Shown one piece after another: positions 1,369-46,000 of a DNA stretch of 47,553 bases; position 1 is the stretch's first letter; the number at the start of each line of letters is the position of its first letter. A program made the position numbers and the translations under genes. The notes under the pieces are model-generated. The model did no database searches. It was not told where the DNA came from and worked only from the letters and a program-made list of their open reading frames with translations. This stretch comes from a virus (lineage: Duplodnaviria; Heunggongvirae; Uroviricota; Caudoviricetes), in the IMG/VR virus record IMGVR_UViG_2939177367_000001. The stretch is one strand, 5' to 3'.

Positions 1369-1444
1369 GCCGATATAGCTCAGTTGGTAGAGCAGCGCAT
1401 TCGTAATGCGAAGGTCGTAGGTTCGACTCCTATTATCGGCACCA
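1369..1444 (+). tRNA. thrW: tRNA-Thr, anticodon CGT at 1402-1404
   Basis: 76-nt sequence GCCGATATAGCTCAGTTGGTAGAGC...GGTTCGACTCCTATTATCGGCACCA with cloverleaf arms and CCA end; lies between proA and the integrase, the known P22-type attachment site. Confidence 0.9.
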
Positions 1445-8283: not shown

Positions 8284-8772
8284 ATGAGTCTTTTGAATGA
8301 CGTTCAGAAATTCATTGAAGCCCATCCGGGCTGTACTTCCGGAGACATTGCAGATGCTTTTGCTGGTTACTCACGGCAGCGCGTTCTGCAGTCAGCAAGC
8401 AAGTTACGTCAGAGTGGGCGTGTGGCTCACCGTTGTGAAGGAGATACACGCAGACATTTCCCGCGCCTGACTGAGAGAGCGCAGGAGCCGGAACCACAAT
8501 CTGTTCGTGAAACCAGACCTGTGCGCAATTTCTATGTCGGCACTAACGATCCCCGGGTGATTTTGTGCCTGACCCGCCAGGCTGAAGAGCTGGAGTCCAG
8601 GGGCTTATACCGTCGTGCTGCAACGGTGTGGATGGCGGCATTCCGTGAAAGTCACTCCCAGCCAGAACGAAACAACTTTCTGGCGCGTCGAGAGCGGTGC
8701 TTACGGAAAAGCAGCAAGCGCGCTGTATCGGGTGATGAATGGTATCTGTCAGGGAATTACGTGGGGGCTTAA
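8284..8772 (+). CDS. hypothetical protein with PerC-like C-terminal motif (about 162 aa)
   Basis: Motif GLYRRAATVWMAAF...RRERC resembles the PerC/Pch regulator signature (from memory). Confidence 0.4.
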   Translation: MSLLNDVQKFIEAHPGCTSGDIADAFAGYSRQRVLQSASKLRQSGRVAHRCEGDTRRHFPRLTERAQEPEPQSVRETRPVRNFYVGTNDPRVILCLTRQAEELESRGLYRRAATVWMAAFRESHSQPERNNFLARRERCLRKSSKRAVSGDEWYLSGNYVGA

Positions 8773-9098
8773 TGACGACGTTAACTCAGTGTCAGCAGCA
8801 GGTGCTGGATATGCTGATTTCTTATCAGAAAGAACGTGGCTTCCCGCCAACCAATCAGGAGGTGGCAACCATGCTGGGATACCGTTCAGTGAATGCAGCG
8901 GTGGAGCATCTTCGCGCACTGGAGAAAAAAGGCGTCATCACGATAAAGCGTGGCGTGGCCCGGGGCATCACGCTTCATACCGCGGTGAAGGACGACGACA
9001 GCGAGGCGGTCGGGATTATCCGCTCACTGCTTGCCGGTGAGGAAAACGCAAGGCTGCGTGCAACCCACTGGTTACATGAGAGGGGCCTGAAAGTATGA
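8772..9098 (+). CDS. LexA N-terminal DNA-binding domain paralogue lacking peptidase domain (108 aa)
   Basis: LTQCQQQVLDMLISYQKERGFPPTNQEVATMLGYRSVNAAVEHLRALEKKGVI aligns by eye to LexA residues about 1-70; no S24 domain follows. Confidence 0.65.
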   Translation: MTTLTQCQQQVLDMLISYQKERGFPPTNQEVATMLGYRSVNAAVEHLRALEKKGVITIKRGVARGITLHTAVKDDDSEAVGIIRSLLAGEENARLRATHWLHERGLKV

Positions 9099-9484
9099 AG
9101 CTGATCCTGCCTTTTCCGCCCAGCGTGAACACGTACTGGCGACACCCCAACAAAGGGGCGTTTGCTGGTAAGAGCCTGATAAGCGCGGCGGGGCGAAAAT
9201 TCCAGAGCGCGGCGTGCGCAGCAATAGTTGAGCAGTTACGTCGTCTGCCGAAACCAACGTCGGCACCTGCTTCAGTGGAGATCGTGTTGTTTCCTCCGGA
9301 TAACAGGATCCGCGATCTGGACAACTATAACAAGGCGCTGTTTGACGCCCTGACCCACGCGGGGGTGTGGGAAGACGACAGTCAGGTGAAAAGAATGCTG
9401 GTGGAGTGGGGACCGGTTATCCCGGAAGGGAAGGTCGAGATCACTATCAGTAAGTACGAGAAAACGGCGGGTGCAGCTGCCTGA
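9095..9484 (+). CDS. rusA: Holliday junction resolvase RusA (129 aa)
   Basis: Motifs LPFPPSVNTYWRH and RDLDNYNKALFDALT match the RusA family. Confidence 0.85.
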   Translation: MKLILPFPPSVNTYWRHPNKGAFAGKSLISAAGRKFQSAACAAIVEQLRRLPKPTSAPASVEIVLFPPDNRIRDLDNYNKALFDALTHAGVWEDDSQVKRMLVEWGPVIPEGKVEITISKYEKTAGAAA

Positions 9485-9503
9485 TTAAGAGGAGAAACGA
9501 AGT

Positions 9504-10314: not shown

Positions 10315-11310
10315 GTGACCGTGAGAGCACTACTGACCCCTGAAATTGCCCCGCGTATGGGGATCGTATTGTTCAGGCCAGGTTCAGAGCTGATGCCCTT
10401 GTTTATGCAGGGGCGTGTCCTGCTGGAGCCTGAGCCGGAACGTTATTCATCTTTCGCCAGTGGTGCCGTTCCCGCGGCATCACAACCGCTGGCGGATGAT
10501 CCTGCCGTTCGGGCCGTGTTCCGCAATGAGGCAGTGATCCGTCGTGCTGGTGGCGTGGAATGTCTTGAAAGCTGGTTACTTCGTGAAAAAGGCTGCCAGT
10601 GGCTTCATTCCGACTGGCACAGCGAGAACATGACAACAATGCGACACGCTCCGGGCGCAATCCGTCTGTGCTGGCACTGCGATAACCAGCTGCGCGATCA
10701 GTTCACGGAACGGCTGGAATCAATGGCAACGGATAACTGTGCCCGCTGGGTGTTGTCTGTTGTGCGTCGGGATCTCGGTTTTGATGACAGTCACGTTGTG
10801 ACAATGCCGGAACTGTGCTGGTGGCTGATTCGTAATGACCTGGCGGACGCCTTACCGGAAAGTGCAGCCCGTAAGGCACTGAGATTACCGAAGCCTGTTG
10901 TGCCGTCTGTCACCCGGGAAAGTGACCTTGTGCCTTCGGTTCCTGCCACCAGCATCATCCAGGATAAGGCGAAAAAGGTGCTGGCGCTGAAAGTGGATCC
11001 GGAGTCGCCGGAGTCTTTTATGTTACGCCCAAAACGTCGCCGCTGGGTTAATGAAAAGTACACGCGCTGGGTTAAGACACAGCCGTGTGCATGTTGTGGA
11101 AAGCCCGCTGATGATCCCCACCACCTGATAGGTCACGGTCAGGGTGGAATGGGAACAAAAGCGCATGACCTTTTTGTGTTGCCTTTGTGCAGAAAGCATC
11201 ACGACGAGCTGCATGCGGATACCGTGGCATTTGAAGAGAAGTATGGCTCCCAGCTGGAGCTGATATTTCGTTTTATCGATCGTGCGCTGGCAATAGGTGT
11301 ACTGGCGTAA
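10315..11310 (+). CDS. DUF968-family protein with Cys/His-rich C-terminus (331 aa)
   Basis: C-terminal CACCGKPADDPHHL...CRKHHDELH motif recalled as DUF968, common in lambdoid nin regions. Confidence 0.55.
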   Translation: MTVRALLTPEIAPRMGIVLFRPGSELMPLFMQGRVLLEPEPERYSSFASGAVPAASQPLADDPAVRAVFRNEAVIRRAGGVECLESWLLREKGCQWLHSDWHSENMTTMRHAPGAIRLCWHCDNQLRDQFTERLESMATDNCARWVLSVVRRDLGFDDSHVVTMPELCWWLIRNDLADALPESAARKALRLPKPVVPSVTRESDLVPSVPATSIIQDKAKKVLALKVDPESPESFMLRPKRRRWVNEKYTRWVKTQPCACCGKPADDPHHLIGHGQGGMGTKAHDLFVLPLCRKHHDELHADTVAFEEKYGSQLELIFRFIDRALAIGVLA

Positions 11311-11323
11311 GTGGAGAACGAGC

Positions 11324-12076
11324 ATGAACCTTGAAGCCTTACCGAAATATTACTCCCCAAAATCTCCAAAATTGAGCGATGACGCACCGGCGACAGGCTC
11401 TGGTGGTTTAACAATTACGGATGTGATGGCTGCGCAGGGGATGGTGCAGTCGAAAGCACCGCTTGGGTTTGCCTTATTCCTGGCAAAAGTTGGTGTTCAG
11501 GATCCTCAGTTTGCGATTGAAGGTCTGCTCAATTACGCGATGGCACTGGATAACCCGACATTGAATAAATTGAGTGAAGAAACCCGGCTACAGATTATTC
11601 CTTACCTTGTGAATTTTGCCTTTGCTGATTATTCCAGGTCTGCGGCAAGTAAGGCTCGCTGTGAGCATTGTGCTGGTACTGGATTTCATAATGTATTGCG
11701 CGAAGTGGTGAAACACTCCAGAAGCGGGGAATCTGTTATCAAGGAAGAGTGGGTGAAGGAACTATGTCAGCATTGTCATGGTAAGGGAGAAGTCAGCACA
11801 GCGTGCAGAGGGTGTAAGGGTAAAGGTATTGTCCTGGATGAAAAAAGGACCCGGCTTCATGGCACGCCTGTTTATAAGATTTGTGGGCGTTGCAATGGAA
11901 ATCGGTTTAGCCGTTTACCGACCACACTGGCGCGGCATCATGTCCAGAATCTGGTAACAGACCTGACGGATTATCAGTGGTACAAAGGATATGCAGACGT
12001 CATTGATAAACTGGTTACAAAGTGCTGGCAGGAAGAAGCATATGCTGAAGCGCAATTGAGAAAAGTGACAAGATAA
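11324..12076 (+). CDS. Q: late-gene antiterminator Q (250 aa)
   Basis: CxxC...CxxC zinc-binding core (CEHCAGTG, CQHCHGKG, CRGCKGKG) and position before the lysis cassette; GGAG RBS. Confidence 0.75.
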   Translation: MNLEALPKYYSPKSPKLSDDAPATGSGGLTITDVMAAQGMVQSKAPLGFALFLAKVGVQDPQFAIEGLLNYAMALDNPTLNKLSEETRLQIIPYLVNFAFADYSRSAASKARCEHCAGTGFHNVLREVVKHSRSGESVIKEEWVKELCQHCHGKGEVSTACRGCKGKGIVLDEKRTRLHGTPVYKICGRCNGNRFSRLPTTLARHHVQNLVTDLTDYQWYKGYADVIDKLVTKCWQEEAYAEAQLRKVTR

Positions 12077-13286: not shown

Positions 13287-14339
13287 ATGAAAAATACTGT
13301 AAAAATAAACAGTGTTGATTTAATCAACGCTGATTGCCTGCATTTTATTCAGTCCCTGCCTGATGATTCCATTGACCTGATTGTTACCGATCCGCCGTAC
13401 TTCAAGGTGAAACCCAACGGCTGGGACAATCAGTGGAAAGGGGACGAAGATTACCTTAAGTGGCTGGACCACTGTCTGGCCCAGTTCTGGCGGGTGTTAA
13501 AGCCTGCCGGAAGCCTTTACCTGTTCTGTGGGCATCGCCTGGCATCTGATATTGAGATCATGATGCGTGAACGTTTCAACGTGCTTAACCATATCATCTG
13601 GGCGAAGCCGTCCGGACGTTGGAATGGGTGTAATAAAGAAAGTCTGCGCGCATATTTTCCTGCCACAGAGCGCGTTCTGTTTGCTGAACATTACCAGGGG
13701 CCATATCGCGGCAAAAGTGACGGCTATGCGGCAAAAGAAAGGGAACTCAAACAGCACATAATGGCACCGCTGATATCGTATTTCAGGGATGCTCGTGCCG
13801 AACTGGGTATAACGGCAAAACAAATTGCCGAAGCCACAGGTAAGAAAAATATGGTTTCCCACTGGTTTGGTGCCAGTCAGTGGCAGTTGCCGAATGAGGC
13901 TGACTATCGGAAGTTACAGGCACTGTTTTCCCGTATAGCGGCAGAGAAGTTTCAGGAACAACAACTGGAACAACCACACCACCAGCTGGTGGCATCTTAT
14001 GATTCACTGAATCGCAAATATTCTGAATTGCTGGATGAGTTTAAATCTCTCCGGCGCTATTTCTCCGTATCAGTCTCCGTGCCTTATACCGATGTCTGGA
14101 TGCATAAACCCGTTCAGTTCTACCCGGGTAAACATCCGTGTGAGAAACCTGCGGATATGCTCCGGCAAATAATCAATGCCAGTAGTCGACCTGGTGATCT
14201 GGTTGCTGATTTTTTTATGGGATCCGGTTCCACAATAAAAGCAGCAATGGCGCTGGGGCGTCGGGCCTTAGGTGTTGAGCTTGAGTCAGAGCGGTTTAAC
14301 CAGACAGTGAAAGAGATAAACGAGCTGGTGGGGAAATAA
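13287..14339 (+). CDS. DNA methyltransferase, DPPY motif (N6-adenine/N4-cytosine class), orphan (350 aa)
   Basis: Catalytic motif IV DLIVTDPPYF near N-terminus, C-terminal AdoMet-binding FFMGSGST; no cognate endonuclease adjacent. Confidence 0.8.
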   Translation: MKNTVKINSVDLINADCLHFIQSLPDDSIDLIVTDPPYFKVKPNGWDNQWKGDEDYLKWLDHCLAQFWRVLKPAGSLYLFCGHRLASDIEIMMRERFNVLNHIIWAKPSGRWNGCNKESLRAYFPATERVLFAEHYQGPYRGKSDGYAAKERELKQHIMAPLISYFRDARAELGITAKQIAEATGKKNMVSHWFGASQWQLPNEADYRKLQALFSRIAAEKFQEQQLEQPHHQLVASYDSLNRKYSELLDEFKSLRRYFSVSVSVPYTDVWMHKPVQFYPGKHPCEKPADMLRQIINASSRPGDLVADFFMGSGSTIKAAMALGRRALGVELESERFNQTVKEINELVGK

Positions 14340-14405: not shown

Positions 14406-14621
14406 ATGAAATCCATGGATAAGTTAACAACGGGTGTCGCCTATGGCACCTCAGCAGGTAGTGCCGGGTACTGGTTTTTACAGTTGCTCGATAAAGTCAC
14501 GCCCTCACAGTGGGCGGCAATAGGTGTGCTGGGTAGTCTGGTATTTGGCTTGCTGACGTATCTGACAAACCTTTATTTCAAGATTAAAGAAGACAAGCGT
14601 AAGGCTGCACGGGGAGAGTAA
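14406..14621 (+). CDS. S: pinholin, phage 21 S21-like (71 aa) with dual-start motif
   Basis: MKSMDK dual Met start and sequence match recalled S21 pinholin. Confidence 0.85.
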
Positions 14622-15313: not shown

Positions 15314-15856
15314 ATGAACGTAAAAATCAGATACGGCCTGTCGGCTGCCGTTCTGGCACTGATTGCCGTCGGTGCGCCTGCGCCTGATATTCTCGACCAG
15401 TTTCTGAATGAAAAAGAAGGTAACCACACAACGGCATACCGCGATGGTTCCGGCATCTGGACCATCTGTCGGGGTGCCACGGTGGTGGATGGAAAACCCG
15501 TTTTTCCCGGTATGAAACTGTCGAAGGAAAAATGCGACCAGGTTAACGCCATTGAACGGGATAAGGCGCTGGCATGGGTGGAGCGCAATATTAAAGTGCC
15601 ACTGACCGAACCACAGAAAGCGGGTATAGCGTCATTTTGTCCCTATAACATTGGCCCCGGTAAGTGTTTCCCGTCGACGTTTTATAAGCGGCTGAATGCC
15701 GATGATCGTAAGGGGGCATGCGAGGCGATTCGCTGGTGGATAAAAGATGGTGGGCGTGATTGCCGCCTGACAAAAGGGCAGAAGAATGGCTGTTATGGGC
15801 AGGTCGAGCGGCGCGATCAGGAAAGCGCACTGGCGTGCTGGGGGCTGGAGCAATGA
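15314..15856 (+). CDS. R: SAR endolysin (lysozyme, phage 21 R-like, 180 aa)
   Basis: N-terminal signal-anchor-release segment YGLSAAVLALIAVGA followed by a lysozyme-like domain. Confidence 0.85.
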   Translation: MNVKIRYGLSAAVLALIAVGAPAPDILDQFLNEKEGNHTTAYRDGSGIWTICRGATVVDGKPVFPGMKLSKEKCDQVNAIERDKALAWVERNIKVPLTEPQKAGIASFCPYNIGPGKCFPSTFYKRLNADDRKGACEAIRWWIKDGGRDCRLTKGQKNGCYGQVERRDQESALACWGLEQ

Positions 15857-16053
15857 AAATTAATCCGGATCTTATAGGCGTTGTCGTTATTGCTGGCCTT
15901 TCGGTCGCTCTCGTCAAGAGTTGCTCTCACGCCAGTAATCTTCAGAGCGATAACGACGTTCTGCGAAGTGACAACTCTATGCTGGGGCAGGTAATCGCCA
16001 CCCAGGCATTCAACTTCAATCGATTCAATCAGGTTGCAGAACATGCCAACTGA
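15853..16053 (+). pseudogene. Rz: Rz (i-spanin) N-terminal fragment, truncated by IS insertion; C-terminal remainder in frame at 17364..17702
   Basis: Start overlaps endolysin stop (ATGA); TM segment LIGVVVIAGLSVALV; stop codon is supplied by the first three bases of the IS; reading frame resumes after the IS and the AAC duplication. Confidence 0.7.
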
Positions 16054-16104
16054 ACCGCCCCGGGAATCCTGGAGACTAAACTTCCTGAGAAAGAGGTAAA
16101 CAGG

Positions 16105-16431
16105 ATGACTAAAAATACTCGTTTTTCCCCCGAAGTCCGTCAACGGGCAGTCCGTATGGTTCTGGAAAGTCAGAGCGAATATGACTCACAATGGGCGACA
16201 ATTTGTTCCATTGCTCCAAAGATTGGCTGTACGCCGGAGACTCTGCGTGTCTGGGTTCGCCAGCATGAGCGGGATACCGGGGGCGGTGATGGAGGGCTCA
16301 CCACCGCTGAACGTCAGCGTCTGAAAGAGCTGGAACGTGAAAATCGTGAACTGCGCCGCAGTAACGATATCCTTCGCCAGGCTTCCGCTTATTTTGCGAA
16401 GGCGGAGTTCGACCGCCTCTGGAAAAAATGA
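16105..16431 (+). CDS. IS629-like transposase OrfA (108 aa)
   Basis: HTH plus leucine-zipper protein matching recalled IS629 OrfA. Confidence 0.9.
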
Positions 16432-17318
16432 TGCCACTGCTGGATAAGCTGCGTGAGCAGTACGGGGTCGGACCGCTATGCAGCGAACTGCATATTGCCC
16501 CGTCAACGTATTACCACTGTCAGCAACAGCGACATCATCCGGATAAACGCAGTGCCCGTGCGCAGCGCGATGACTGGCTGAAGAAAGAGATACAGCGCGT
16601 ATACGATGAAAATCACAAGGTATACGGTGTGCGTAAAGTCTGGCGTCAGTTGTTACGGGAAGGTATCAGAGTGGCCAGATGCACTGTGGCACGTCTCATG
16701 GCGGTTATGGGACTTGCCGGTGTTCTCCGGGGTAAAAAGGTCCGTACGACCATCAGCCGGAAAGCCGTTGCCGCAGGCGACCGCGTAAACCGTCAGTTCG
16801 TGGCAGAACGACCTGACCAGCTGTGGGTGGCTGATTTTACTTACGTCAGCACATGGCGGGGCTTCGTCTATGTGGCGTTCATCATTGATGTGTTTGCCGG
16901 ATACATCGTGGGGTGGCGGGTCTCATCGTCCATGGAAACGACATTCGTGCTGGATGCACTGGAGCAGGCGTTATGGGCCCGTCGACCGTCCGGCACGGTC
17001 CATCACAGTGATAAAGGTTCTCAGTATGTATCGCTGGCCTACACACAGCGGCTTAAGGAAGCCGGATTACTGGCATCAACAGGAAGTACAGGCGACTCGT
17101 ATGACAACGCGATGGCGGAGAGCATCAATGGTCTTTACAAAGCGGAGGTAATACACCGTAAGAGCTGGAAAAACCGTGCAGAAGTGGAACTGGCCACACT
17201 CACGTGGGTGGACTGGTATAACAATCGACGATTGCTGGAAAGGCTGGGCCATACTCCTCCGGCAGAAGCAGAAAAAGCTTATTATGCTTCCATCGGAAAC
17301 GATGATCTGGCAGCCTGA
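16428..17318 (+). CDS. IS629-like transposase OrfB (DDE integrase core, 296 aa)
   Basis: DDE catalytic region (WVADFTY..., HSDKGSQY, ...[11 protein letters not shown]); overlaps orfA in the -1 frame across an A6 run, consistent with IS3-family frameshifting. Confidence 0.9.
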
Positions 17319-17430
17319 GTTCACAGATAAAACACTCTCCAGGAAACCCGGGGCGGTTCAAACAGTCTTAACTCCCTGATCGACACCAGCACCGAAAAAA
17401 CCGTAATCGAATACCGGGAGATTCTCCGCC

Positions 17431-17577
17431 GTGAAAAAACCTGTGATCTGCCTGTTCCTGCTGATATCGCTGGTGGGTTGCTCGAATACACGTACCGTTT
17501 ACGTGCCAGCGCCATGCACACCGATACCGGCAGACCTAATGAAGCCTATGATCGTACCGCTACCACCAGCTCAATGA
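17431..17577 (+). CDS. Rz1: Rz1 (o-spanin lipoprotein, 48 aa), embedded in the Rz C-terminal frame
   Basis: GTG start with GGGAG RBS; lipobox LVGC; Pro-rich C-terminus; nested out of frame within Rz as expected. Confidence 0.6.
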   Translation: MKKPVICLFLLISLVGCSNTRTVYVPAPCTPIPADLMKPMIVPLPPAQ

Positions 17578-17870
17578 CCTACTGCCAAGCTGTCTTGTGG
17601 ATTAAGCCGCTACTGGCGTTGATAGAAAAAGGAAATAATAATTTTTCGAGTATTCGTGAAATTGATGAGTTGCGTTACAGACCATCTGAGCATGGCCAGT
17701 AAGGTTGCAGGAAATTTAAAATCTGGCGATGAAATTTAATATTAGAAATTCATTGCCTAGTGAGATTAATAATGGGCATCCCTTTGTGACGATAAGCTTT
17801 AACACATTCACAAAGGGATATTTAATATAGGGTGGTTAATTCCCACTTGCTGTGGTGTTTAGGGGGTAAT

Positions 17871-18563
17871 TCAAATCTTATCTAACTCATTATAGGCTTC
17901 GATAATAAAAATTCTGATTTTAATAAGGCATGATTCAATGAAAGGAATTACTTCATGGTCATTCCCATGGAATCTTATTTTTTTCTCTTCGGTAATGACT
18001 ATGTTTAAAGGTACACCATTACCACTTCTTTGTAATTTCCCATTTTCGAAAGTAAAGTCTTCTAATTTTTTGCCATTGATGTGGTTGTTTTTAAAGAGAA
18101 TTTTTGCTGAGCTTCCTGCTGTGATTAAACCAAAACCATCTACGCTCACACTTAGGTCTTTAACAGAACTCTCTTCTCTTAAGGGGATTGGTTGTCTGTG
18201 CTTTACTTCATTAGTGAGATTACACATCATTTCCAACCAAGATTCGCCAGTGTGATAATCCTGTATAGAAGTAAAAATTTTATATAATGGAGAAGATGAT
18301 GGTGGGTTTATTTTTAGCGTCTTTGAGAAAAATTTATCAATAAACTCTCTTTTTCCGTAAGGGAAATATATTTTGGGGCGCTCATCATTACTGCGTGGAG
18401 AAATATATTTATCATAGGTATCATTAGCGAGATACTCTAAGGAACTTCGTAAGTTTTCCAAAATAGCTTTGACTTTTACAGGCTTGATATGCTGTGTCTG
18501 TCTCATTATGTCAAGACTTTCTTCAACTTCTTGCAATAAGTCCAACGAGCCTTCTCTAGACAT
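17871..18563 (-). CDS. hypothetical moron protein (230 aa) at the bor locus, AT-rich
   Basis: Long ORF in very AT-rich DNA, opposite strand to lysis and packaging genes, flanked by AT-rich promoter-like DNA; occupies the lambda bor position between Rz1 and terminase. Confidence 0.6.
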   Translation of the reverse strand: MSREGSLDLLQEVEESLDIMRQTQHIKPVKVKAILENLRSSLEYLANDTYDKYISPRSNDERPKIYFPYGKREFIDKFFSKTLKINPPSSSPLYKIFTSIQDYHTGESWLEMMCNLTNEVKHRQPIPLREESSVKDLSVSVDGFGLITAGSSAKILFKNNHINGKKLEDFTFENGKLQRSGNGVPLNIVITEEKKIRFHGNDHEVIPFIESCLIKIRIFIIEAYNELDKI

Positions 18564-19134
18564 ACAGGTAATTCTCCTTTATGAATTTTCAACATGTTAT
18601 AACTAATAATATATTTATCATATAACTGTATGAATAAATTGTGAGATTAGTAATGCAAGTTTCTATCCATAGTGTTCTCTAAGTACCCGCTTCCATCATG
18701 TTGTTACGGACGGTATGGCTAAAACAAAGCACCTGAAGTTAAACGTTCTGAACTTTATGCTCGTTGAGCATATGAATTATCTGTAACCCGATGCGCTGGT
18801 TGTGGTTCACATTGATGGTCGTAATCAGCAGCGGTGGTGCCTGATGGCATGCAACTTCTTACTTATAAAACTTCGTATGGAATTGTTGCCATAACGAGCC
18901 CAGCTTAGCAGTTTTTAATGGGTCCTCCCGGCAGTGTGTCCTGCCACGGGGCGGGAGCGTCGCGGAAAAAGGCTAGTTTTTGAAATTTCATTCGTCATCA
19001 CCACTACTGTAATGTATTGATATTACGGTTATTTTATTTTTATGGTGTCGATTTTGATTGTTTTTTGTTCACCACTAACACCGTTTGCCTAAAGTTGTTC
19101 GCAAGATGCATGTTTAAAACATTCTGGAGCGGGT

Positions 19135-19629
19135 ATGGATCGAGAGTTAAAAAATCTGACGCTGAATATCAGTCAACTGGCGGCACTGTCAGGTGTACAT
19201 CGCCAGACTGCTGCGGCAAGGCTGCAAAATCTACCCGTTGCAGGGGGGCATGAAAGCAACCTCAAGCTTTATCGGGTGGTTGATATTGTGTCGGCATTTC
19301 TGGCATTGCCACCGCCGGTTGCAGAAGGCGAAATGGACGCGCATGAGCGCAAAGCCTGGTATCAGTCTGAACGTGAGCGTCTTAAGTTCGAACAGGAAAC
19401 GGCACAACTCATTCCGGCCAGTGATGTCAGACGGGAGTTTGCCATCTGGGCAAAAGCGGTCGTGCAGGTGCTGGAGACATTACCGGATATTCTTGAACGT
19501 GACTGCGGTCTGCAGCCTGCCGCTGTGAGCCGTGTTCAGTCCATTATTGATGATCTGCGCGATCAGATAGCCCTGCGGGTGACTGAAGCAGGTGCGGATG
19601 ATGAGGAGGAATTACAGCAGGAGGAGTAA
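19135..19629 (+). CDS. terminase small subunit (164 aa)
   Basis: N-terminal HTH (LNISQLAALSGVHRQTAAARL), acidic C-terminus, directly upstream of and overlapping the large terminase. Confidence 0.65.
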   Translation: MDRELKNLTLNISQLAALSGVHRQTAAARLQNLPVAGGHESNLKLYRVVDIVSAFLALPPPVAEGEMDAHERKAWYQSERERLKFEQETAQLIPASDVRREFAIWAKAVVQVLETLPDILERDCGLQPAAVSRVQSIIDDLRDQIALRVTEAGADDEEELQQEE

Positions 19630-21731
19630 TGCTGAATCAGGAAACCGCAAAGGCAGCACGAACCGATTCAGGTTATATCCTTCGCGCACCGAGACGAATG
19701 CGGGTTGCTGATGCCGTTGCTCAGTATATGCGGGTGCCCATGGGGGCAGGGAACTCAGTCCCGTGGGATCCGCTGGTGGCACCGTATGTTATTGAGCCGA
19801 TGAACTGCCTGGCCTCGCGTGAATACGACGCAGTGATATTTGTTGGTCCGGCACGAACCGGCAAGACTATCGGCCTGATTGACGGCTGGGTGATTTACAA
19901 CGTGATTTGCGATCCTGCGGATATGCTGATCATTCAGATGACGGAGGAAAAAGCCCGCGAACACTCCAAAAAACGACTTGCCAGAACGTTTCGCGTCAGC
20001 CCGGAAGTGGTCAGTCGCCTGAGTCCGAACAAAAATGACAACAACGTTTATGACAGAACATTCCTTGCTGGCAACTACCTGAAAATCGGCTGGCCGTCAG
20101 TCAATATCATGTCCTCATCAGATTATAAATGCGTGGCGCTGACGGATTATGACCGTTTTCCGGAAGATATTGATGGCGAGGGGGATGCCTTCTCTCTTGC
20201 CTCAAAACGTACCACCACATTTATGTCCAGTGGTATGACGCTGGTGGAGAGTTCCCCCGGCAGGGATGTGAAGGATGTGAAATGGCGACGGACTTCACCG
20301 CATGAGGCTCCACCAACCACGGGGATACTGTCGCTCTATAACCGTGGCGATCGCCGTCGCTGGTACTGGCCCTGTCCACACTGTGGTGAGTATTTTCAGC
20401 CCTGCGGCGATGTGGTTGCTGGTTTCCGTGATATTGCCGATCCCGTGCTGGCAAGTGAGGCGGCTTATATTCAGTGTCCTTCCTGTTCAGGACGGATTAT
20501 GCCTGAACAAAAACGTGAGCTGAACGGACGTGGGGTCTGGTTGCGGGATGGTGAATCCATCAATGCGGATGGCAGTCGTTATGGTGATCCCCGACGCTCA
20601 CGTATTGCGTCATTCTGGATGGAGGGTCCGGCAGCTGCTTACCAGACACTCTCGCAACTCGTTTACAAACTGCTTACTGCAGAACAGGAATACGAGACAA
20701 CCGGAAGTGAAGAAACACTCAGGGCGGTTATCAACACCGACTGGGGATTACCTTATCTTCCCCGCGCCAGCATGGAGCAACGAAAAAGTGAACTGCTTGA
20801 GCAGCGGGCAGAGCCAGTTCCTTCCCACAGTGTGCCGGATGGCGTTAATTTCCTTGTGGCGACAGTGGATGTGCAGGCGGGACGTCATCGCCGTTTTGTG
20901 GTTCAGGTAACGGGCTATGGCAGCCGTGGCGAACGCTGGATTATTGATCGTTACAACATCACGCAGTCATTGCGCGGTGACAGCGACGGGGAGAGCCAGC
21001 GAATTGATCCGGCCAGCTATCCGGAAGACTGGGATGTCCTGCTGACGGATGTTTTTCATAAAAGCTGGCCGCTGGCCTCCGATCCTTCTCAACAAATGCG
21101 ACTGATGGCAATGGCGGTGGACTCCGGCGGTGAAGACGGGGTCACTGATAATGCCTATAAATTCTGGCGTCGTTGCCGTCGTGATGGCCTTGGTAAACGT
21201 ATTTACCTGTTTAAGGGCGACAGCATCCGGCGCGCAAAACTGATCACTCGTACATTCCCTGATAACACCGGACGAACGGGCCGACGGGCGCAGGCCGCAG
21301 GTGATGTGCCGCTCTGGCTTCTTCAGACGGATGCACTGAAAGACCGGGTGAATAACGCGTTATGGCGTGACTCGCCAGGTCCCGGCTATGTGCATTTCCC
21401 TGACTGGCTGGGGAGCTGGTTTTACGACGAACTGACGTATGAAGAGCGGAGCAGTGACGGGAAATGGAGTAAGCCTGGTCGCGGTGCCAACGAAGCTTTT
21501 GACCTGATGGTGTATGCCGAGGCTCTGGTCATTCTGCATGGATACGAAAAGATCCGCTGGCCGGATGCACCGGAGTGGGCGAGCCGGGAAACCTGGCTGG
21601 AGTGTGTCCAGGACAGTACCGAACCGTCATCCTCACCGGAACCGGTATCCACGCCTGTTAAAAAACAAAAACGGAAGAAAACAGTAACTGACGATGTTAA
21701 CCCCTGGCTGACTTCCGGAGGATGGTTATGA
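19629..21731 (+). CDS. A: terminase large subunit, lambda gpA family (700 aa)
   Basis: Size, Walker A-like VGPARTGKT, Cys cluster CPHCGEYF...CPSCSG as in GpA-type terminases. Confidence 0.9.
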   Translation: MLNQETAKAARTDSGYILRAPRRMRVADAVAQYMRVPMGAGNSVPWDPLVAPYVIEPMNCLASREYDAVIFVGPARTGKTIGLIDGWVIYNVICDPADMLIIQMTEEKAREHSKKRLARTFRVSPEVVSRLSPNKNDNNVYDRTFLAGNYLKIGWPSVNIMSSSDYKCVALTDYDRFPEDIDGEGDAFSLASKRTTTFMSSGMTLVESSPGRDVKDVKWRRTSPHEAPPTTGILSLYNRGDRRRWYWPCPHCGEYFQPCGDVVAGFRDIADPVLASEAAYIQCPSCSGRIMPEQKRELNGRGVWLRDGESINADGSRYGDPRRSRIASFWMEGPAAAYQTLSQLVYKLLTAEQEYETTGSEETLRAVINTDWGLPYLPRASMEQRKSELLEQRAEPVPSHSVPDGVNFLVATVDVQAGRHRRFVVQVTGYGSRGERWIIDRYNITQSLRGDSDGESQRIDPASYPEDWDVLLTDVFHKSWPLASDPSQQMRLMAMAVDSGGEDGVTDNAYKFWRRCRRDGLGKRIYLFKGDSIRRAKLITRTFPDNTGRTGRRAQAAGDVPLWLLQTDALKDRVNNALWRDSPGPGYVHFPDWLGSWFYDELTYEERSSDGKWSKPGRGANEAFDLMVYAEALVILHGYEKIRWPDAPEWASRETWLECVQDSTEPSSSPEPVSTPVKKQKRKKTVTDDVNPWLTSGGWL

Positions 21732-23448: not shown

Positions 23449-25420
23449 TTCCTGGTTCAGGATGCAGGCTGGTCACCAGAGTGACGCGGATATTTATATT
23501 TATGACGAGATTGGTTTCTGGGGTGTTACAGCGAAGCAGTTTATCAGTGATCTGAATGCACTGGGCGATATCACCCACATTAATCTCCATATTAATTCAC
23601 CGGGTGGCGATGTCTTTGAAGGCATCGCCATTTTTAATGCGCTGAAAACACATGGTGCGTCCATTACCGTTTATGTCGACGGTGTGGCGGCGTCAATGGC
23701 GTCGGTCATTGCGATGGTGGGAAACCCGGTCATTATGCCGGAAAACACCTTCATGATGATTCATAAACCATTTGGCTTTACGGGCGGTGATGCGGAGGAC
23801 ATGCGCACCTATGCCGACCTGCTCGATAAGGTTGAGGCGGTTCTGTTACCCGCTTATGCACAGAAAACCGGGAAAACCACCGATGAAATTGCTGCCATGC
23901 TGGCGGATGAGACCTGGATGTCCGGTGCCGAATGTCTGGCACAGGGATTTGCTGATCAGGTGACGCCAGCCGTTAAGGCAATGGCATGTATTCAGTCAAA
24001 ACGTACAGAGGAATTTAAAAAGATGCCGGAATCCATTCGAAACATGATTACTCCGCCACGCAACAGTGCTCCACGCGTACAGGATGATGAACCTGCAGCC
24101 TCCCGGACGCCAGTGCAGGCAGCAGCACCCGTGGTGGATGAAAACAGCATCCGTGCGCAGGTCCTGGCAGAGCAAAAAGCGCGTGTAAACGGTATTAATG
24201 ATCTGTTTGCCATGTTTGGCGGGCGTTATCAGGCGCTGCAGGCTCAGTGTCTTGCCGATCCTGAATGTTCGCTGGAGCAGGCCCGCGAAAAGCTGTTGAA
24301 CGAGATGGGGCGCGAGTCCACGCCATCCAATAAAAATACCCCGGCTCATATTTATGCCGGTAACGGTAATTTTGTGGGGGACGGGATCCGCCAGGCGCTG
24401 ATGGCGCGTGCCGGATTTGAAAAAACCGAACGTGATAATGTCTACAACGGGATGACCCTGCGTGAATATGCCCGTATGTCACTGACTGAACGGGGTATTG
24501 GGGTTTCCAGTTATAACCCGATGCAGATGGTCGGTGCGGCGTTCACACACAGTACGTCTGACTTCGGTAATATTCTGCTGGATGTTGCGAACAAAGCCAT
24601 TCTGCAGGGCTGGGAAGATGCCCCTGAAACCTATGAACAGTGGACGCGGAAAGGTCAGTTGTCTGATTTTAAAATTGCCCATCGTGTGGGTATGGGGGGC
24701 TTCAGTGCTCTGCGTCAGGTGCGTGAAGGGGCGGAATATAAATACGTCACCACCGGAGATAAACAGGCCACTATTGCACTGGCGACCTATGGCGAGCTGT
24801 TCAGTATCACCCGTCAGGCCATTATCAATGATGATCTGAATATGCTGACCGATGTCCCGATGAAACTGGGCCGTGCGGCGAAATCCACTATTGCCGATCT
24901 GGTTTATGCCATTCTGACGTCTAACCCGAAAATCTCCACAGATAATGTAAGTCTGTTCGATAAAGCGAAACATGCAAACGTACTGGAGAGCGCTGCAATG
25001 GACGTGGCATCGCTGGATAAAGCCCGCCAGTTGATGCGCGTTCAGAAAGAGGGTGAGCGTCATCTGAATATTCGTCCTGCGTTCGTACTGGTACCGACGG
25101 CGATGGAGTCTGTTGCTAACCAGGTCATTCGCTCCTCAAGTGTCAAGGGGGCTGACATTAACGCCGGTATTATTAACCCGGTGAAAGATTTTGCGACCGT
25201 TATTGCAGAGCCTCGTCTTGATGATAACAGCCAGACCACCTTCTACCTGGCTGCGTCCAAAGGCTCCGATACGATTGAAGTGGCTTATCTCAACGGTGTG
25301 GATACGCCATATATTGATCAGATGGAGGGCTTCAGTGTGGATGGCGTGACAACGAAAGTGCGTATTGACGCTGGTGTCGCGCCAGTTGATCACCGCGGTC
25401 TGGTGAAATGTACGGCGTAA
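23402..25420 (+). CDS. prohead protease (ClpP/S49-like) fused in one ORF to scaffold and major capsid domains (672 aa)
   Basis: N-terminal ClpP-like block (INSPGGDV...ASMASVIAM), Ala/Gln-rich linker, C-terminal capsid-like domain; AGGAGG RBS 5 nt before GTG start. Confidence 0.7.
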   Translation, partial: RNDRSRSTPTTSPKNNSWFRMQAGHQSDADIYIYDEIGFWGVTAKQFISDLNALGDITHINLHINSPGGDVFEGIAIFNALKTHGASITVYVDGVAASMASVIAMVGNPVIMPENTFMMIHKPFGFTGGDAEDMRTYADLLDKVEAVLLPAYAQKTGKTTDEIAAMLADETWMSGAECLAQGFADQVTPAVKAMACIQSKRTEEFKKMPESIRNMITPPRNSAPRVQDDEPAASRTPVQAAAPVVDENSIRAQVLAEQKARVNGINDLFAMFGGRYQALQAQCLADPECSLEQAREKLLNEMGRESTPSNKNTPAHIYAGNGNFVGDGIRQALMARAGFEKTERDNVYNGMTLREYARMSLTERGIGVSSYNPMQMVGAAFTHSTSDFGNILLDVANKAILQGWEDAPETYEQWTRKGQLSDFKIAHRVGMGGFSALRQVREGAEYKYVTTGDKQATIALATYGELFSITRQAIINDDLNMLTDVPMKLGRAAKSTIADLVYAILTSNPKISTDNVSLFDKAKHANVLESAAMDVASLDKARQLMRVQKEGERHLNIRPAFVLVPTAMESVANQVIRSSSVKGADINAGIINPVKDFATVIAEPRLDDNSQTTFYLAASKGSDTIEVAYLNGVDTPYIDQMEGFSVDGVTTKVRIDAGVAPVDHRGLVKCTA

Positions 25421-25506
25421 TCGTCGCAGATAACAACTCTGATGGCCCGTAAGGGCTTTTTTTGTACCTGAAATCAGCCCCTGAACGGGGCTGTGCGGAG
25501 ACAGTT

Positions 25507-25830
25507 ATGGCAAAGAATTTTGTAGAAGAAGGAAAAACGGTGGCGATTGTTGCCAGTGCAGCCATCAGCAGCGGAGATCTGGTGCAGGTGGGTGATATTT
25601 TTGCGGTGGCGCTGACCGATATTCAACAGGGTGAAACAGGCGACGGCATGACCGAAGGTGTGTTTATGCTGCCTAAGCTGAAAACGGATGACATGAAAAC
25701 GGGTAAGAAGGTTTATCTGAAGTCCGGAAAAGTTCAGCTGACTAACAGCGGCTCTGATCCGCTGGTCGGGGTTGTCTGGGCAGATGCCGGAACCAGTGCA
25801 GAAGAAGTGCCGGTAAAACTCAATGTCTGA
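25507..25830 (+). CDS. small head protein (decoration or DUF2190-like, 107 aa)
   Basis: Position after capsid gene; GGAG RBS; Gly/Val-rich beta-like composition. Confidence 0.45.
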   Translation: MAKNFVEEGKTVAIVASAAISSGDLVQVGDIFAVALTDIQQGETGDGMTEGVFMLPKLKTDDMKTGKKVYLKSGKVQLTNSGSDPLVGVVWADAGTSAEEVPVKLNV

Positions 25831-26098
25831 TCCCTTTTCCCGGCTGGCAGCGCGTATGGATGCGATCACGGTCAGAAAGATGGGAAAGACAGCCTCGATT
25901 AATGATGTCGATATGACTGTGATCCCGGGAGAAACACTGGCAGAGCTGAATGCTCTGTCCGGACCTGCGGTCTCTCTGGTGGTGTTTTCTTCGGGATACC
26001 GCCCACGGCGCGGGGATCGCGTTGTTTATGACGGACAACATTGGACGGTCACACGGCATGAACGCTTTAACGGTAAGCCAATGATCTTTATTGAGTAA
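25823..26098 (+). CDS. head-tail connector / head completion protein (91 aa)
   Basis: Synteny between head and tail genes; start overlaps upstream stop. Confidence 0.45.
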   Translation: MSDPFSRLAARMDAITVRKMGKTASINDVDMTVIPGETLAELNALSGPAVSLVVFSSGYRPRRGDRVVYDGQHWTVTRHERFNGKPMIFIE

Positions 26099-26109
26099 AG
26101 AGGTGTGGG

Positions 26110-26688
26110 ATGAAGGGGCTTGAGAATGCCATCCGCAATCTGAACAGCCTTGATACCCGTATGGTGCCACAGGCCAGCGCATGGGCGATAAACCGTGTTG
26201 CACAGAAAGCGGTCTCGGTTGCCACCCGGCAGGTTGCCGGGAATACCGTTGCGGGAGATAACCAGGTGAAAGGGATACCCCTGAAACTGGTACGTCAGCG
26301 TGTCCGGGTGTTTAAAGCCAGTCCGTCAGGAAAAATGACGGCCAGGATCCGCGTTAACCGGGGCAATCTGCCTGCCATTAAGCTGGGGACCGCCCGGGTC
26401 AGACTGACCCGGCGTGGTGGAAAACTGCAGTACCGTGGCAGTGTGCTGAAGGTGGGTAAATATCTTTTCCGGGATGCGTTTATTCAGCAACTGGCGAATG
26501 GTCGCTGGCATGTGATGCGGCGTATTGATGGCAAAAATCGTTACCCCATTGATGTGGTGAAAGTCCCGCTGTCCGGACCGCTGACACAGGCATTTGAAGA
26601 TGCCCGCGACCGCATTATTGCTGCGGAAATGCCGAAACAGCTGGGGTATGCACTGAAACAACAACTGAGGTTATGGCTGACCCGATGA
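26110..26688 (+). CDS. Z: minor tail protein Z-like (192 aa)
   Basis: Length equals lambda gpZ; synteny before U and V. Confidence 0.65.
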   Translation: MKGLENAIRNLNSLDTRMVPQASAWAINRVAQKAVSVATRQVAGNTVAGDNQVKGIPLKLVRQRVRVFKASPSGKMTARIRVNRGNLPAIKLGTARVRLTRRGGKLQYRGSVLKVGKYLFRDAFIQQLANGRWHVMRRIDGKNRYPIDVVKVPLSGPLTQAFEDARDRIIAAEMPKQLGYALKQQLRLWLTR

Positions 26689-27086
26689 ACCGACATACAC
26701 AAATCCGCCAGGCCGTACTGGCACGCCTTCGGGAACAGTGTGGAGACAGCGCCACGTTTTTTGACGGGCTTCCGGCATTTATTGATGCGCAGGAACTGCC
26801 TGCCGTGGCGGTGTGGCTGAGTGATGCTCAGTACACCGGAAAAATGACGGATGAAGATGACTGGCAGGCTGTTCTGCATATTGCTGTCTTCATCCGGGCA
26901 CAGGCACCGGATTCAGAGCTGGATATGTGGATGGAGAGCACTATTTTCCCGGCCCTGAATGATGTACCGGCACTTTCCGGACTCATCGACACCCTGATCC
27001 CACTCGGTTTTAACTATCAACGTGATAATGAGATGGCCACCTGGGCGATGGCGGAAATCACGTACCAGATCACGTACACGAATTAA
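26673..27086 (+). CDS. U: tail terminator protein U-like (137 aa)
   Basis: Size and synteny immediately upstream of the major tail protein. Confidence 0.65.
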   Translation: MADPMNRHTQIRQAVLARLREQCGDSATFFDGLPAFIDAQELPAVAVWLSDAQYTGKMTDEDDWQAVLHIAVFIRAQAPDSELDMWMESTIFPALNDVPALSGLIDTLIPLGFNYQRDNEMATWAMAEITYQITYTN

Positions 27087-27096
27087 GGAGGTGGCA

Positions 27097-27840
27097 ATGA
27101 CCACACCAAATCCACTGGCAAAAACGAAAGGTGCGGGAACGACGTTCTGGATGTACACCGGCAAGGGCGATGCGTTTGCGAACCCTTTATCGGACACTGA
27201 CTGGCTGCGTCTTGCGATGGTGAAGGATCTGCAACCTGGCGAAATGACCGCTGATGCAGAAGATGACACTTATCTCGATGATGAAGATGCAGACTGGAAA
27301 ACGACAACCCAGGGGCAGAAATCCGTCGGTGATACTTCGGCGACGCTGGCCTGGCGTCCGGGTGACAGCGGGCAGAAAAAACTGGTTCAGTTGTTCGACT
27401 CCGGTGAAGTCTGCGCGTTTCGTATCAAATATCCCAACGGCACTGTTGATGTTTTCCGTGGCTGGCTGAGCTCACTGGGTAAAACCATTGCCTCAAAAGA
27501 CGTGATGACCCGCACAGTGAAAATCAGCGGTGTGGGGCGTCCGTATCTGGCAGAGGAAGGCACTGAAACAGTGAGCGTTACCGGGCTGACGGTGGCACCG
27601 GCATCTGCCAGTGTAAAAGTGGGAGCAACCACCACGCTGACCTTTACAGTAAAACCTGACGGAGCCAGTGACAAAGCGATCAGTGTGCATTCGACAGATC
27701 CACAGACTGCCACGGTGACCCTGAACGGGCTTGTGGCCACGGTGAAAGGCGTGAAGCAGGGCAGTGTCAGCATTGTGGGCATGACTTCTGACGGCGATTT
27801 TGTGGCCGTGGCTGCGGTGGCTGTCAGCGCCGCAGGTTAA
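27097..27840 (+). CDS. V: major tail protein V with C-terminal Ig-like (Big_2) domain (247 aa)
   Basis: AAGGAGG RBS; C-terminal Thr/Val-rich Ig-like segment as in lambda gpV. Confidence 0.85.
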   Translation: MTTPNPLAKTKGAGTTFWMYTGKGDAFANPLSDTDWLRLAMVKDLQPGEMTADAEDDTYLDDEDADWKTTTQGQKSVGDTSATLAWRPGDSGQKKLVQLFDSGEVCAFRIKYPNGTVDVFRGWLSSLGKTIASKDVMTRTVKISGVGRPYLAEEGTETVSVTGLTVAPASASVKVGATTTLTFTVKPDGASDKAISVHSTDPQTATVTLNGLVATVKGVKQGSVSIVGMTSDGDFVAVAAVAVSAAG

Positions 27841-27860
27841 CAGGACGATACTCATCATTT

Positions 27861-27885
27861 GCCCCGGTTATCCGGGGCTTTTTTG
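27861..27885 (+). terminator. hairpin plus T-run between V and G
   Basis: CCCCGG-TTAT-CCGGGG followed by TTTTTTG. Confidence 0.5.
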
Positions 27886-27900
27886 CAGGTGGAGAACATG

Positions 27901-28287
27901 ATGTTTCTGAAACAGGGCTCGTTTAATTATGAAAAGCAGTCCGTGGTGCTCAGTGAGCTGTCCGGGCTGCAGAGAATTGAATATCTGGCGTTTGTTCAGC
28001 AGCGAACGGCAAAGTTTGATGCCGAAGAGGGAGAACTGCCGGAGGCTGAACGACAGATTGCTTTTCTGCGGATGGGGATGGATATCAATGCCTGGCTGGT
28101 TTCCCGCTCACTGTGGAATGCGGAACAGTCTCAGGATGTTGAGACGCTTTGCGCATCCGTTATTACAACATGGTCGTATGATGCCCTGGGAGCGGGGGCG
28201 GAGATGGTTCTGTCGCTGAGCGGTATGGGAGCCATTGAGAATGCCGGGGATTTGGAGCATGAGGTGCTGACGCCGGAAAAGTCCTGA
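27901..28287 (+). CDS. G: tail assembly chaperone G
   Basis: MFLKQGSF...LSELSGLQRIEYLAF matches lambda gpG N-terminus. Confidence 0.8.
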   Translation: MFLKQGSFNYEKQSVVLSELSGLQRIEYLAFVQQRTAKFDAEEGELPEAERQIAFLRMGMDINAWLVSRSLWNAEQSQDVETLCASVITTWSYDALGAGAEMVLSLSGMGAIENAGDLEHEVLTPEKS

Positions 28288-28625
28288 CGCGGGAAATGCA
28301 GTTTGTCATGCGGCTTGCCCGGGAGTTCCGGCGGGCAGACTGGCGGCGGATGCTGTCGGAAATGTCGGCCACTGAGCTTGGTGAATGGGGCGATTATTTC
28401 CAGATGCAGAGCTTCAGTGATGTGTGGATGGATGCGCAGTTTGCCTCGCTGAAGGCATTGATCGTGAGAATGGTGTCCGGTAGCAGTGATGCTGCGGTGG
28501 CTGATTTCAGCCTTTTACCGGAAGAGAACGGGATACCGGAGCGAACGGACGAAGAACTGATGCATCTTGGGGAAGGTATTTCCGGAGGTGTGCGTTATGG
28601 ACCAGATAGCCAACCTGGTCATTGA
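28263..28625 (+). CDS. T: T segment of the G-T tail assembly chaperone, reached by -1 frameshift from G
   Basis: ORF in the -1 frame overlapping the G 3' end and extending to the tape-measure start; candidate slip region CCGGAAAAG at 28273-28281. Confidence 0.55.
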   Translation, partial: GADAGKVLTREMQFVMRLAREFRRADWRRMLSEMSATELGEWGDYFQMQSFSDVWMDAQFASLKALIVRMVSGSSDAAVADFSLLPEENGIPERTDEELMHLGEGISGGVRYGPDSQPGH

Positions 28626-32686: not shown

Positions 32687-32691
32687 ATCCC

Positions 32692-38097: not shown

Positions 38098-38161
38098 TTA
38101 GCCAGGTAACACAGTGTTATGACAGCCCGCCGGTTCAGGCGGGCTTTTTTGTGGGGGGAAT

Positions 38162-45915: not shown

Positions 45916-46000
45916 ATACATCCCTTTGTTAACATACAGTCAGGGTTAACATTTTTCCATAGTTATAGATAAGCGGCTAGGAACTTAAGGGAAAAACAAA

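Follow-up and report, generated by a model that had tools for sequence, protein, structure and literature searches.

An IS629 insertion in the Rz-like spanin gene of a lambdoid prophage at thrW in Escherichia coli

In phage lambda, the spanins Rz and Rz1 act last in the holin-endolysin-spanin pathway (PMC5295617). Loss of either subunit gives spherical cells and a lysis block that is absolute unless shear is applied, nonsense mutations throughout the periplasmic domain of Rz are lysis-defective, and Rz1 cannot work alone without Rz (PMC5295617). The pinholin/SAR pathway of phage 21 likewise needs spanins (PMC6139136). Spanin mutants still lyse in shaken, low-cation cultures (PMC6139136), so the practical cost of spanin loss may be small. 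A curated family of embedded inner- and outer-membrane subunits (i- and o-spanins) includes HK225, ZF40 and mEp237 (Kongari et al. 2018, PMC6139136). IS629, a member of the IS3 family, is known from E. coli O157:H7, Shigella and Stx phages, and has the near-identical isoforms IS1203 and IS3411. Its target duplications are 3-4 bp, and 62% of the IS629 copies of E. coli O157 reside in prophages (PMC3271280). Simple inactivation of a phage gene by IS629 is seen in a regulatory gene of Stx2_499, where the duplication is CCAG, and in the phage 21 int gene of strain EC38 (AF017626.1), where it is ATA. In the locus described here the target differs from both, being an Rz gene. Among the papers searched none links IS629 to the disruption of a spanin, and a single one names both, in passages unrelated to each other.

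The DNA analysed (the window, 47,553 nucleotides) carries a lambdoid prophage integrated at thrW, adjoining proA, in E. coli. The features of its lysis region are collected in Table 1. The holin, first gene of the cassette, is 100% identical to EssD of ETEC1706 and is of the phage 21 type and unlike lambda S. The endolysin is 100% identical to RrrQ WP_001101168.1, and its TGA stop codon overlaps the ATG start of Rz (ATGA), so that, as in mEp237, the spanin gene directly follows the endolysin gene. Downstream of the cassette, the ORF at 17871-18563, one of the unannotated ORFs of the window, was assigned no known function by domain and family searches. Our overall reading, which we hold with high confidence, is that one IS629 transposition truncated Rz and that loss of the spanin step is to be expected.

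Table 1. Positions of the lysis genes, the inserted element and its parts in the window.
Feature	Coordinates	Strand	Remarks
Holin, S21/EssD type	14406..14621	+	First lysis-cassette gene; Pfam Phage_holin_2_1, 2e-35
Lysozyme-type endolysin	15314..15856	+	Weakly hydrophobic SAR-like N-terminus; Pfam Phage_lysozyme, 1e-23
Rz codons 1-66	15853..16050	+	N-terminal transmembrane segment (about residues 7-21) and beginning of periplasmic domain
AAC target-site duplication, left copy	16048..16050		Read from sequence
IS629 (IS3 family), complete	16051..17360	+	1310 bp; same orientation as the lysis operon
Left inverted repeat (IRL) of IS629	16051..16075	+	25 nt; first bases TGA are the stop that ends Rz
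orfA	16105..16431	+	108 aa, helix-turn-helix; Pfam HTH_Tnp_1, 7e-13
ALIL pseudoknot, -1 frameshift stimulator	16386..16502	+	Rfam RF01497, 120.2 bits (gathering score 50), full-length
orfB	16428..17318	+	296 aa, DDE transposase catalytic domain; Pfam rve, 8e-28
Right inverted repeat (IRR) of IS629	17336..17360	-	25 nt; terminates ...CA
AAC target-site duplication, right copy	17361..17363		Read from sequence
Rz codons 67-178 and stop	17364..17702	+	Without start codon or membrane anchor
Rz1	17431..17577	+	48-aa lipoprotein precursor; GTG start, not ATG; intact

The preliminary description had recognized a complete IS629-like element with intact orfA and orfB at this position, and this was borne out by the size of the element, by the domains of both products and by the IS3 transposase model, NCBIfam NF033516, which OrfB matched with 314.6 bits (cut-off 160). 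IS3 family elements measure about 1.2-1.5 kb and have imperfect terminal inverted repeats with 5'-TG...CA-3' ends. Here the ends read TGAACC...GGTTCA, and each occurs as a single copy within the window. The repeats had been given as imperfect and 24 bp long; imperfect they are, but their length is 25 nt, with 23 of the 25 positions pairing (92%). The orfB frame lies at -1 relative to orfA (frames 0 and 1, respectively) with an ATGA overlap, and the ALIL pseudoknot spans an A6 run (16423-16428) where the two ORFs overlap, so that frameshifting is predicted to yield an OrfAB fusion of 404 aa. OrfB also carries the candidate catalytic motifs ADFTY, SDKGSQY and AMAES. Named insertion sequences are treated as isoforms at a nucleotide identity of at least 95%. 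The copy in the window is 99.5% identical to the annotated IS629 of Stx2_499, from which it differs at 6 of 1310 nt and by 1 aa in each ORF, the length of its OrfA being that of the annotated product; it is 100% identical to the copy in AF017626.1, and its identity to the IS1203 of ETEC1706 is 96.2%. Size, inverted repeats, overlapping ORFs with a frameshift signal, the transposase model and the target duplication all place it with IS629 in the IS3 family. No structural difference from known IS629 was seen, the likeness extending over the 1310-bp length, the 25-nt repeats, the ORF sizes, the A6 run with ALIL, the 3-bp duplication and the location in a prophage. From the integrity of its sequence this copy looks active and may still be mobile.

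The left junction reads ...GCCAAC/TGAACCGCC... (the slash marking the boundary of the element), and AAC flanks the element on both sides. In E. coli ECC-1470 the empty site reads ...CATGCCAACAGTCTT..., where AAC occurs once only, as would be expected of the 3-bp duplication that had been proposed. A 3-bp match alone would arise by chance in 1 of 64 cases, but the perfect reconstruction of the empty site makes such a chance match irrelevant. When 16051..17363 (the element and one AAC copy) was deleted, an open Rz frame of 178 codons ending at 17702 was restored, in agreement with the continuity of the frame asserted earlier. The restored 537-bp gene is base-for-base the intact gene of E. coli ECC-1470 and ETEC4090. 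The comparison with uninterrupted relatives suggested at the outset was extended to the surroundings, and the reconstructed empty site (788 bp) was found with 100% identity in at least 20 complete E. coli genomes. The structure is therefore that of a single, simple IS629 transposition at Rz codon 66/67 with duplication of AAC.

Misplacement of the multi-copy IS629 into Rz by a mis-joined contig would be an artefact of assembly, and many E. coli genomes do carry multiple copies of the element. The junction is also absent from the other records searched. A 2.5-kb query running from the lysozyme gene through the interrupted Rz did not find the same insertion in complete E. coli genomes or phage records, and scans for the exact left-junction pattern gave zero matches in GTDB representative genomes, JGI metagenomes and IMG/VR. 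The sole record covering at least 80% of the 2.5-kb query, CUPS TF 6/1_01, was rejected, as it joins a truncated Rz to a tail-fibre gene and another IS3 copy in an unrelated arrangement. An exact-protein look-up of the 66-aa stub, which by its nature yields only contigs that stop at this codon, gave two metagenome contigs from ENA (samples ERZ28641245 and ERZ28574574). Both match the window with 100% identity as far as 16050, end exactly there, and are the sole hint of the allele in other records. Such ends would be consistent with an assembly that branches where alleles with and without the insertion diverge, and a chance truncation is possible. Against a mis-join stand these two independent contigs breaking at the same base, together with junctions that are exact to the base on both sides, a perfect 3-bp duplication, which a mis-join would not generate, and a perfectly restored gene. 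We regard an artefact as extremely improbable.

The simple transposition into Rz also looks recent and strain-specific. It had been called probably recent before, and this fits flanks that are 100% identical to empty-site alleles and an element that is 100% identical to another deposited copy; the absence of the exact junction from every collection searched suggests that it is particular to this strain.

The interrupted gene had been named Rz. On sequence grounds it is an Rz-like i-spanin of the embedded family of HK225, ZF40 and mEp237, and only membership in the lambda Rz family proper did not hold. The restored protein (178 aa; WP_000700651.1) matched PHROG 214 'Rz-like spanin' at 2e-54, and its closest phage homologue is the 'Rz-like spanin' of mEp237, with 83.5% identity over 170 aa; the Rz of the window differs from that of mEp237 in a C-terminal tail that diverges and is 7 residues longer, and in being split by the IS. 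It has the features of an i-spanin, namely an N-terminal anchor (hydropathy peak at residues 7-21), a periplasmic domain and a place adjoining the endolysin in the lysis cassette, and its cysteines C24, C93 and C140 could supply the periplasmic residues for disulfides. The lambda Rz family (Pfam PF03245, Phage_lysis) was considered and rejected, the restored protein having no Pfam match at E<=0.01, and tblastn with lambda Rz and Rz1 gave no match in the window. The pair in the window thus resembles lambda Rz/Rz1 in layout and presumably in mode of action (one partner is a type II inner-membrane protein whose periplasmic domain is helical, the other an outer-membrane lipoprotein encoded in the +1 frame), but shows no detectable sequence relationship to it.

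Rz1 is nested in the +1 frame of Rz, covering 0.49-0.77 of the Rz length, and has the attributes of an o-spanin: it is a small lipoprotein with a signal peptide and lipobox cysteine, encoded in another frame within the i-spanin gene. Its lipobox is LVGC (MKKPVICLFLLISLVGC), with C17 as the lipidated cysteine, and the mature part of 32 aa is proline-rich (8 Pro) and has a further cysteine, C29. The match to PHROG 456 'Rz-like spanin' was at 1.3e-6, and mEp237 contains an embedded +1-frame ORF whose start, 48-aa length and LVGC lipobox match those of Rz1 in the window. Rz1 had been described as intact and as separated from the late promoter by the element. Intact it is, but the separation is doubtful as an obstacle. 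Q antiterminates the late transcripts of lambdoid phages, and the + strand of IS629 showed a single, weak terminator-like site; a polar effect on Rz1 is therefore doubtful and the separation is probably minor.

As had been claimed, the in-frame TGA at 16051-16053 takes the place of codon 67 in the frame opened by the ATG at 15853 and ends Rz after 66 residues. The resulting stub comprises little beyond the membrane anchor. The other 112 codons have neither start nor anchor, the earliest in-frame start after the element being a TTG at 17478, and Rz1 is untouched but partnerless. On induction, holin and endolysin would be expected to act as before, the inner membrane becoming permeable and the cell wall being degraded, whereas the final step, disruption of the outer membrane by Rz-Rz1, would fail, leaving fragile spherical cells unless these were broken by shear or low divalent cations. 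We infer this lysis defect by analogy with the genetics of lambda and phage 21, the two phages in which the need for spanins is established; the same need in the HK225/ZF40/mEp237-type family would likewise follow by analogy.

The insertion could instead be without real phenotypic effect, the outer membrane being disrupted by spanins of a co-resident prophage, by shear or by an unrecognised disruptor, with the phage fully competent. Shaken cultures can do without spanins when no divalent cations are added (PMC6139136), the other prophage genes compared are all intact, and some unannotated ORFs, including the one noted above, have no known function. Several lambdoid lysis cassettes are typically present in an E. 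coli genome, and the 2.5-kb query had a median of 5 matching places in each, in part because of the IS that it contains. Co-induced prophages elsewhere in the genome could supply spanins, the present comparison covering the window. Complementation in trans would, however, require that another prophage be induced at the same time, and the lambda lysis block is absolute without shear on loss of either subunit (PMC5295617). Within the window, tblastn and a lipobox regular expression (a crude pattern that could miss atypical signal peptides) revealed no further Rz, Rz1 or lipobox ORF, and hence no sign of the intact Rz elsewhere in the prophage that the preliminary description had raised as possible counter-evidence. 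An insertion without effect seems quite unlikely.

The remainder of the prophage bears on whether truncation of Rz stands by itself. Roughly 50 other prophage genes were compared with relatives and all were full length, among them the integrase, LexA-like repressor, Q, holin, endolysin, terminase, portal, capsid, all tail genes, J and the gene for tail-fibre assembly, so that the Rz disruption appears to be the single lesion in an otherwise complete prophage. No attR repeat of the thrW end, of 12 nt or more, was found in the window. The sibling prophages at thrW in ETEC1706 and ETEC4090 have a deletion of about 20 kb from terminase to tail fibre and also bear IS1203, IS100 or ISCro1 insertions, so that decay through IS activity does occur in the thrW lineage. 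The prophage in the window might already be dead or under host selection for decay, with the IS as one step of an ongoing domestication and not an isolated recent accident. The genes from integrase through tail-fibre assembly are nevertheless full length, there is just one IS in the window, with flanks 100% identical to intact alleles, and the evidence in the window gives no sign of selection. We consider this course unlikely, and domestication of the prophage is speculation.

A truncation of Rz by a recent transposition makes this a clean, ordinary IS knock-out of a phage lysis gene, of a kind already known and understood. More far-reaching roles can be imagined. Given the orientation of the element and the lack of a strong + strand terminator, induction might drive read-through into orfA/orfB and so couple IS629 transposition to induction, delayed rupture giving IS copies a chance of being packaged or of spreading to other phage genomes in the cell; or a spanin-null prophage might be kept for holding virions or cargo in spherical cells until mechanical disruption. 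Both ideas are very improbable. The insertion adds to the cases of E. coli prophages shaped by IS629, beside thrW siblings that decay by other IS insertions and deletions, and is of little general importance. It does mark the prophage as probably spanin-defective, which is relevant when induction or phage release is measured. RefSeq labels the intact Rz family "hypothetical protein" and leaves its Rz1 without annotation throughout, so that automated pipelines would miss a lysis-gene disruption of this kind. The strain-specific junction could be used as a typing marker.

The Rz gene of this prophage is interrupted by an IS629 element of 1310 bp. Script-based reading and slicing of 15600-17900 placed the left junction at 16050/16051 (...GAACATGCCAAC / TGAACCGCCCCGGGAATCCTGGAGA...) and the right junction at 17360/17361 (...TCTCCAGGAAACCCGGGGCGGTTCA / AACAGTCTTAAC...), with AAC on each side of the element, in agreement with the target duplication proposed in a preliminary description. 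The inverted repeats reported there are present, but at 25 nt (92% complementary in a repeat search) the arms are one base longer than the 24 bp given; each terminus occurs once within the 47.5-kb window. Deletion of 16051-17363, removing the element and one AAC, restored a continuous 178-codon ORF ending at 17702, as had been described. The comparison with uninterrupted prophages proposed at that time showed the restored 537-bp gene to be identical at every base to the WP_000700651.1 genes of E. coli ECC-1470 and ETEC4090. At least 20 complete genomes carry the reconstructed 788-bp empty site at 100% identity, and its coverage reached at least 80% in 115 genomes. This proves that the insertion was a simple one, with a 3-bp duplication, and, as originally suggested, argues for a recent event.

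Features of the prophage and of related sequences (window coordinates unless another sequence is named)
Feature	Coordinates	Strand	Remark
tRNA-Thr (thrW)	1369-1444		
Segment not aligning to ETEC1706	8693-9492		800 bp
Q homologue	11297-12076		
DNA methyltransferase	13287-14339	+	350 aa
S21-type holin	14406-14621		5' of lysozyme gene
DUF1327/YdfR gene			5' of lysozyme gene
Lysozyme gene	15314-15856		Pfam Phage_lysozyme
Rz (interrupted)	15853-17702		
IS629	16051-17360		arms 16051-16075, 17336-17360
orfA	16105-16431		108 aa; HTH_Tnp_1
ALIL pseudoknot	16386-16502		
A6 run	16423-16428		
orfB	16428-17318		296 aa; HTH_21 + rve
Terminator-like site	16818-16833	+	weak
Rz1	17431-17577		48 codons
Putative moron	17871-18563	-	230 aa
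Restriction-modification pair	43197-44672; 44707-45921	+; -	type II
Right-edge ORF	46588-47553	+	321 aa
Contig ERZ28641245	1-657		window 15394-16050
Contig ERZ28574574	1-620		window 15431-16050
Intact Rz, ECC-1470	20154-20690		
Intact Rz, ETEC1706	29179-29715		
Intact Rz, ETEC4090	32598-33134		
ISEc52, ECC-1470	18167-19336		frameshifted
Sibling loci, ETEC1706	24348-27252; 38157-43645		
Sibling loci, ETEC4090	27767-30671; 41432-44047		
IS629, AF017626.1	623-1932		E. coli EC38

Both transposase ORFs are intact, as reported, and have the same lengths as those of the annotated IS629 of Stx2a phage Stx2_499, to which the element shows 99.5% DNA identity (6 differences, 1 aa per ORF). The NCBIfam IS3 transposase equivalog model (cut-off 160) gave OrfB a score of 314.6 bits. 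The orfB frame is -1, overlapping orfA at ATGA with the A6 run ahead of the overlap, and the ALIL frameshift pseudoknot gave a full-length Rfam match (120 bits, gathering score 50); frameshifting by -1 at the A6 run would yield a 404-aa OrfAB. A 100% identical copy, flanked by an ATA/ATA 3-bp duplication, splits the phage 21 int gene in AF017626.1; the IS1203 copy of ETEC1706 shows 96.2% identity. IS629 is reported to generate duplications of 3-4 bp, and in E. coli O157 62% of its copies to lie inside prophages (PMC3271280). Based on the ORFs, domains, pseudoknot, identity to known copies and published duplication size, the element is a complete, apparently functional IS629.

The Rz ATG at 15853 overlaps the lysozyme stop codon. 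Restored Rz had no Pfam or NCBIfam match but matched PHROG 214 "Rz-like spanin" (2e-54), and the protein is hydrophobic at residues 7-21 and contains three Cys. Its nearest phage homologue is the "Rz-like spanin" of mEp237 (88.6% nt, 83.5% aa identity), which sits in the curated embedded spanin family HK225/ZF40/mEp237 (PMC6139136). RefSeq/PGAP labels intact Rz a 'hypothetical protein' and the embedded Rz1 is never annotated; automated annotation would therefore miss the IS hit as a lysis-gene disruption. In ECC-1470 an ISEc52 lies between ydfR and the lysozyme gene of the same lysis cassette, in a Qin-like prophage beside rspB with identical lysozyme and Rz genes.

By its sequence the GTG-initiated ORF in the +1 frame of Rz is Rz1: its product would be MKKPVICLFLLISLVGC followed by a proline-rich mature part of 32 residues, it matches PHROG 456, and mEp237 has an ORF matching it in start, length and lipobox. 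The earlier argument that the IS separates Rz1 from the late promoter is weak, as the plus strand of the element contains a single weak terminator-like site and a Q homologue is present. Since a GGGAGA motif is retained 9 nt 5' of the GTG, and late transcription of lambdoid phages is Q-antiterminated, Rz1 is probably still expressed. The polarity question is moot, as Rz1 depends on Rz.

The first three IS bases are an in-frame TGA that stops Rz after 66 residues, as described. The distal 112 Rz codons share the frame of orfB, but because TGA (17316) and TAA (17328) separate them from it, and they offer no in-frame start before a TTG at 17478, an anchored C-terminal fragment cannot be made. The 47.5-kb window, searched for an intact Rz elsewhere as the preliminary description had suggested, yielded no second Rz or Rz1 and no further lipobox ORF. 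In lambda, lysis is abolished by nonsense mutations all along the periplasmic domain of Rz, and cells lacking either spanin subunit become spheres enclosed by the outer membrane (PMC5295617). Spanins are likewise needed in the phage 21 pinholin/SAR-endolysin pathway; in shaken flasks to which no divalent cations are added, they can be dispensed with (PMC6139136). From the stop after residue 66 and these genetics we infer that the prophage would be spanin-null, with a defect expected mainly under static or cation-rich conditions. The disruption first described is real and was correctly read; element, mode of action and class of gene are all already known.

The Rz::IS629 allele was absent from complete E. 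coli genomes and phage records, and the exact junction from GTDB representative genomes, JGI metagenome contigs and IMG/VR contigs. The sole high-coverage match to the region was rejected as a false join. A pair of independent metagenome contigs from ENA match the window at 100% identity and end precisely at 16050, an end point that exact-protein look-up favours; these ends are suggestive of an assembly branch where Rz alleles with and without the element diverge, or may reflect chance.

Gene order in the window is proA, tRNA-Thr, integrase, early genes, LexA-like repressor, Q, DNA methyltransferase, lysis cassette, terminase, portal, capsid, tail genes, J, Lom, tail fibre and a type II restriction-modification pair. 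About 50 reference proteins of relatives correspond to full-length window ORFs, with Rz the sole exception. Sibling prophages at the same thrW/proA site in pig ETEC strains have an uninterrupted Rz, lack some 20 kb of morphogenesis genes (terminase to tail fibre), and carry IS1203 (in ymfL), IS100 or ISCro1. These are independent decay routes within one prophage lineage, in which, judging from the siblings' deletion and other ISs, IS-driven decay occurs. As a single lesion is visible in the window, the suggestion that this prophage is on the way to domestication stays a conjecture.

Just past the tail-fibre genes, the restriction-modification pair consists of a C5 cytosine methyltransferase and a restriction endonuclease (PADLOC 4e-230, 2e-234), and is also present in ETEC1706 and ETEC4090. 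The other methyltransferase (PADLOC MTase_II, 3e-152) lies in the late operon between the Q antiterminator and holin, with no partner nuclease nearby. An opposite-strand ORF separating Rz from the gene for the small terminase, 99.6-100% identical in relatives, matched PHROG 13652 (unknown function) and neither Pfam nor PADLOC; it looks like a moron. A search of 20000-47553 for direct repeats (12 nt or longer) of the thrW end (1369-1500) found none; the right attachment site lies beyond the window, or is shorter or degenerate. Rightward of about 46364 the window does not align with ETEC1706, and the right-edge ORF has no Pfam or NCBIfam match. The non-aligning early-region segment, where ETEC1706 carries a truncated PerC-family gene, looks like a mosaic replacement.
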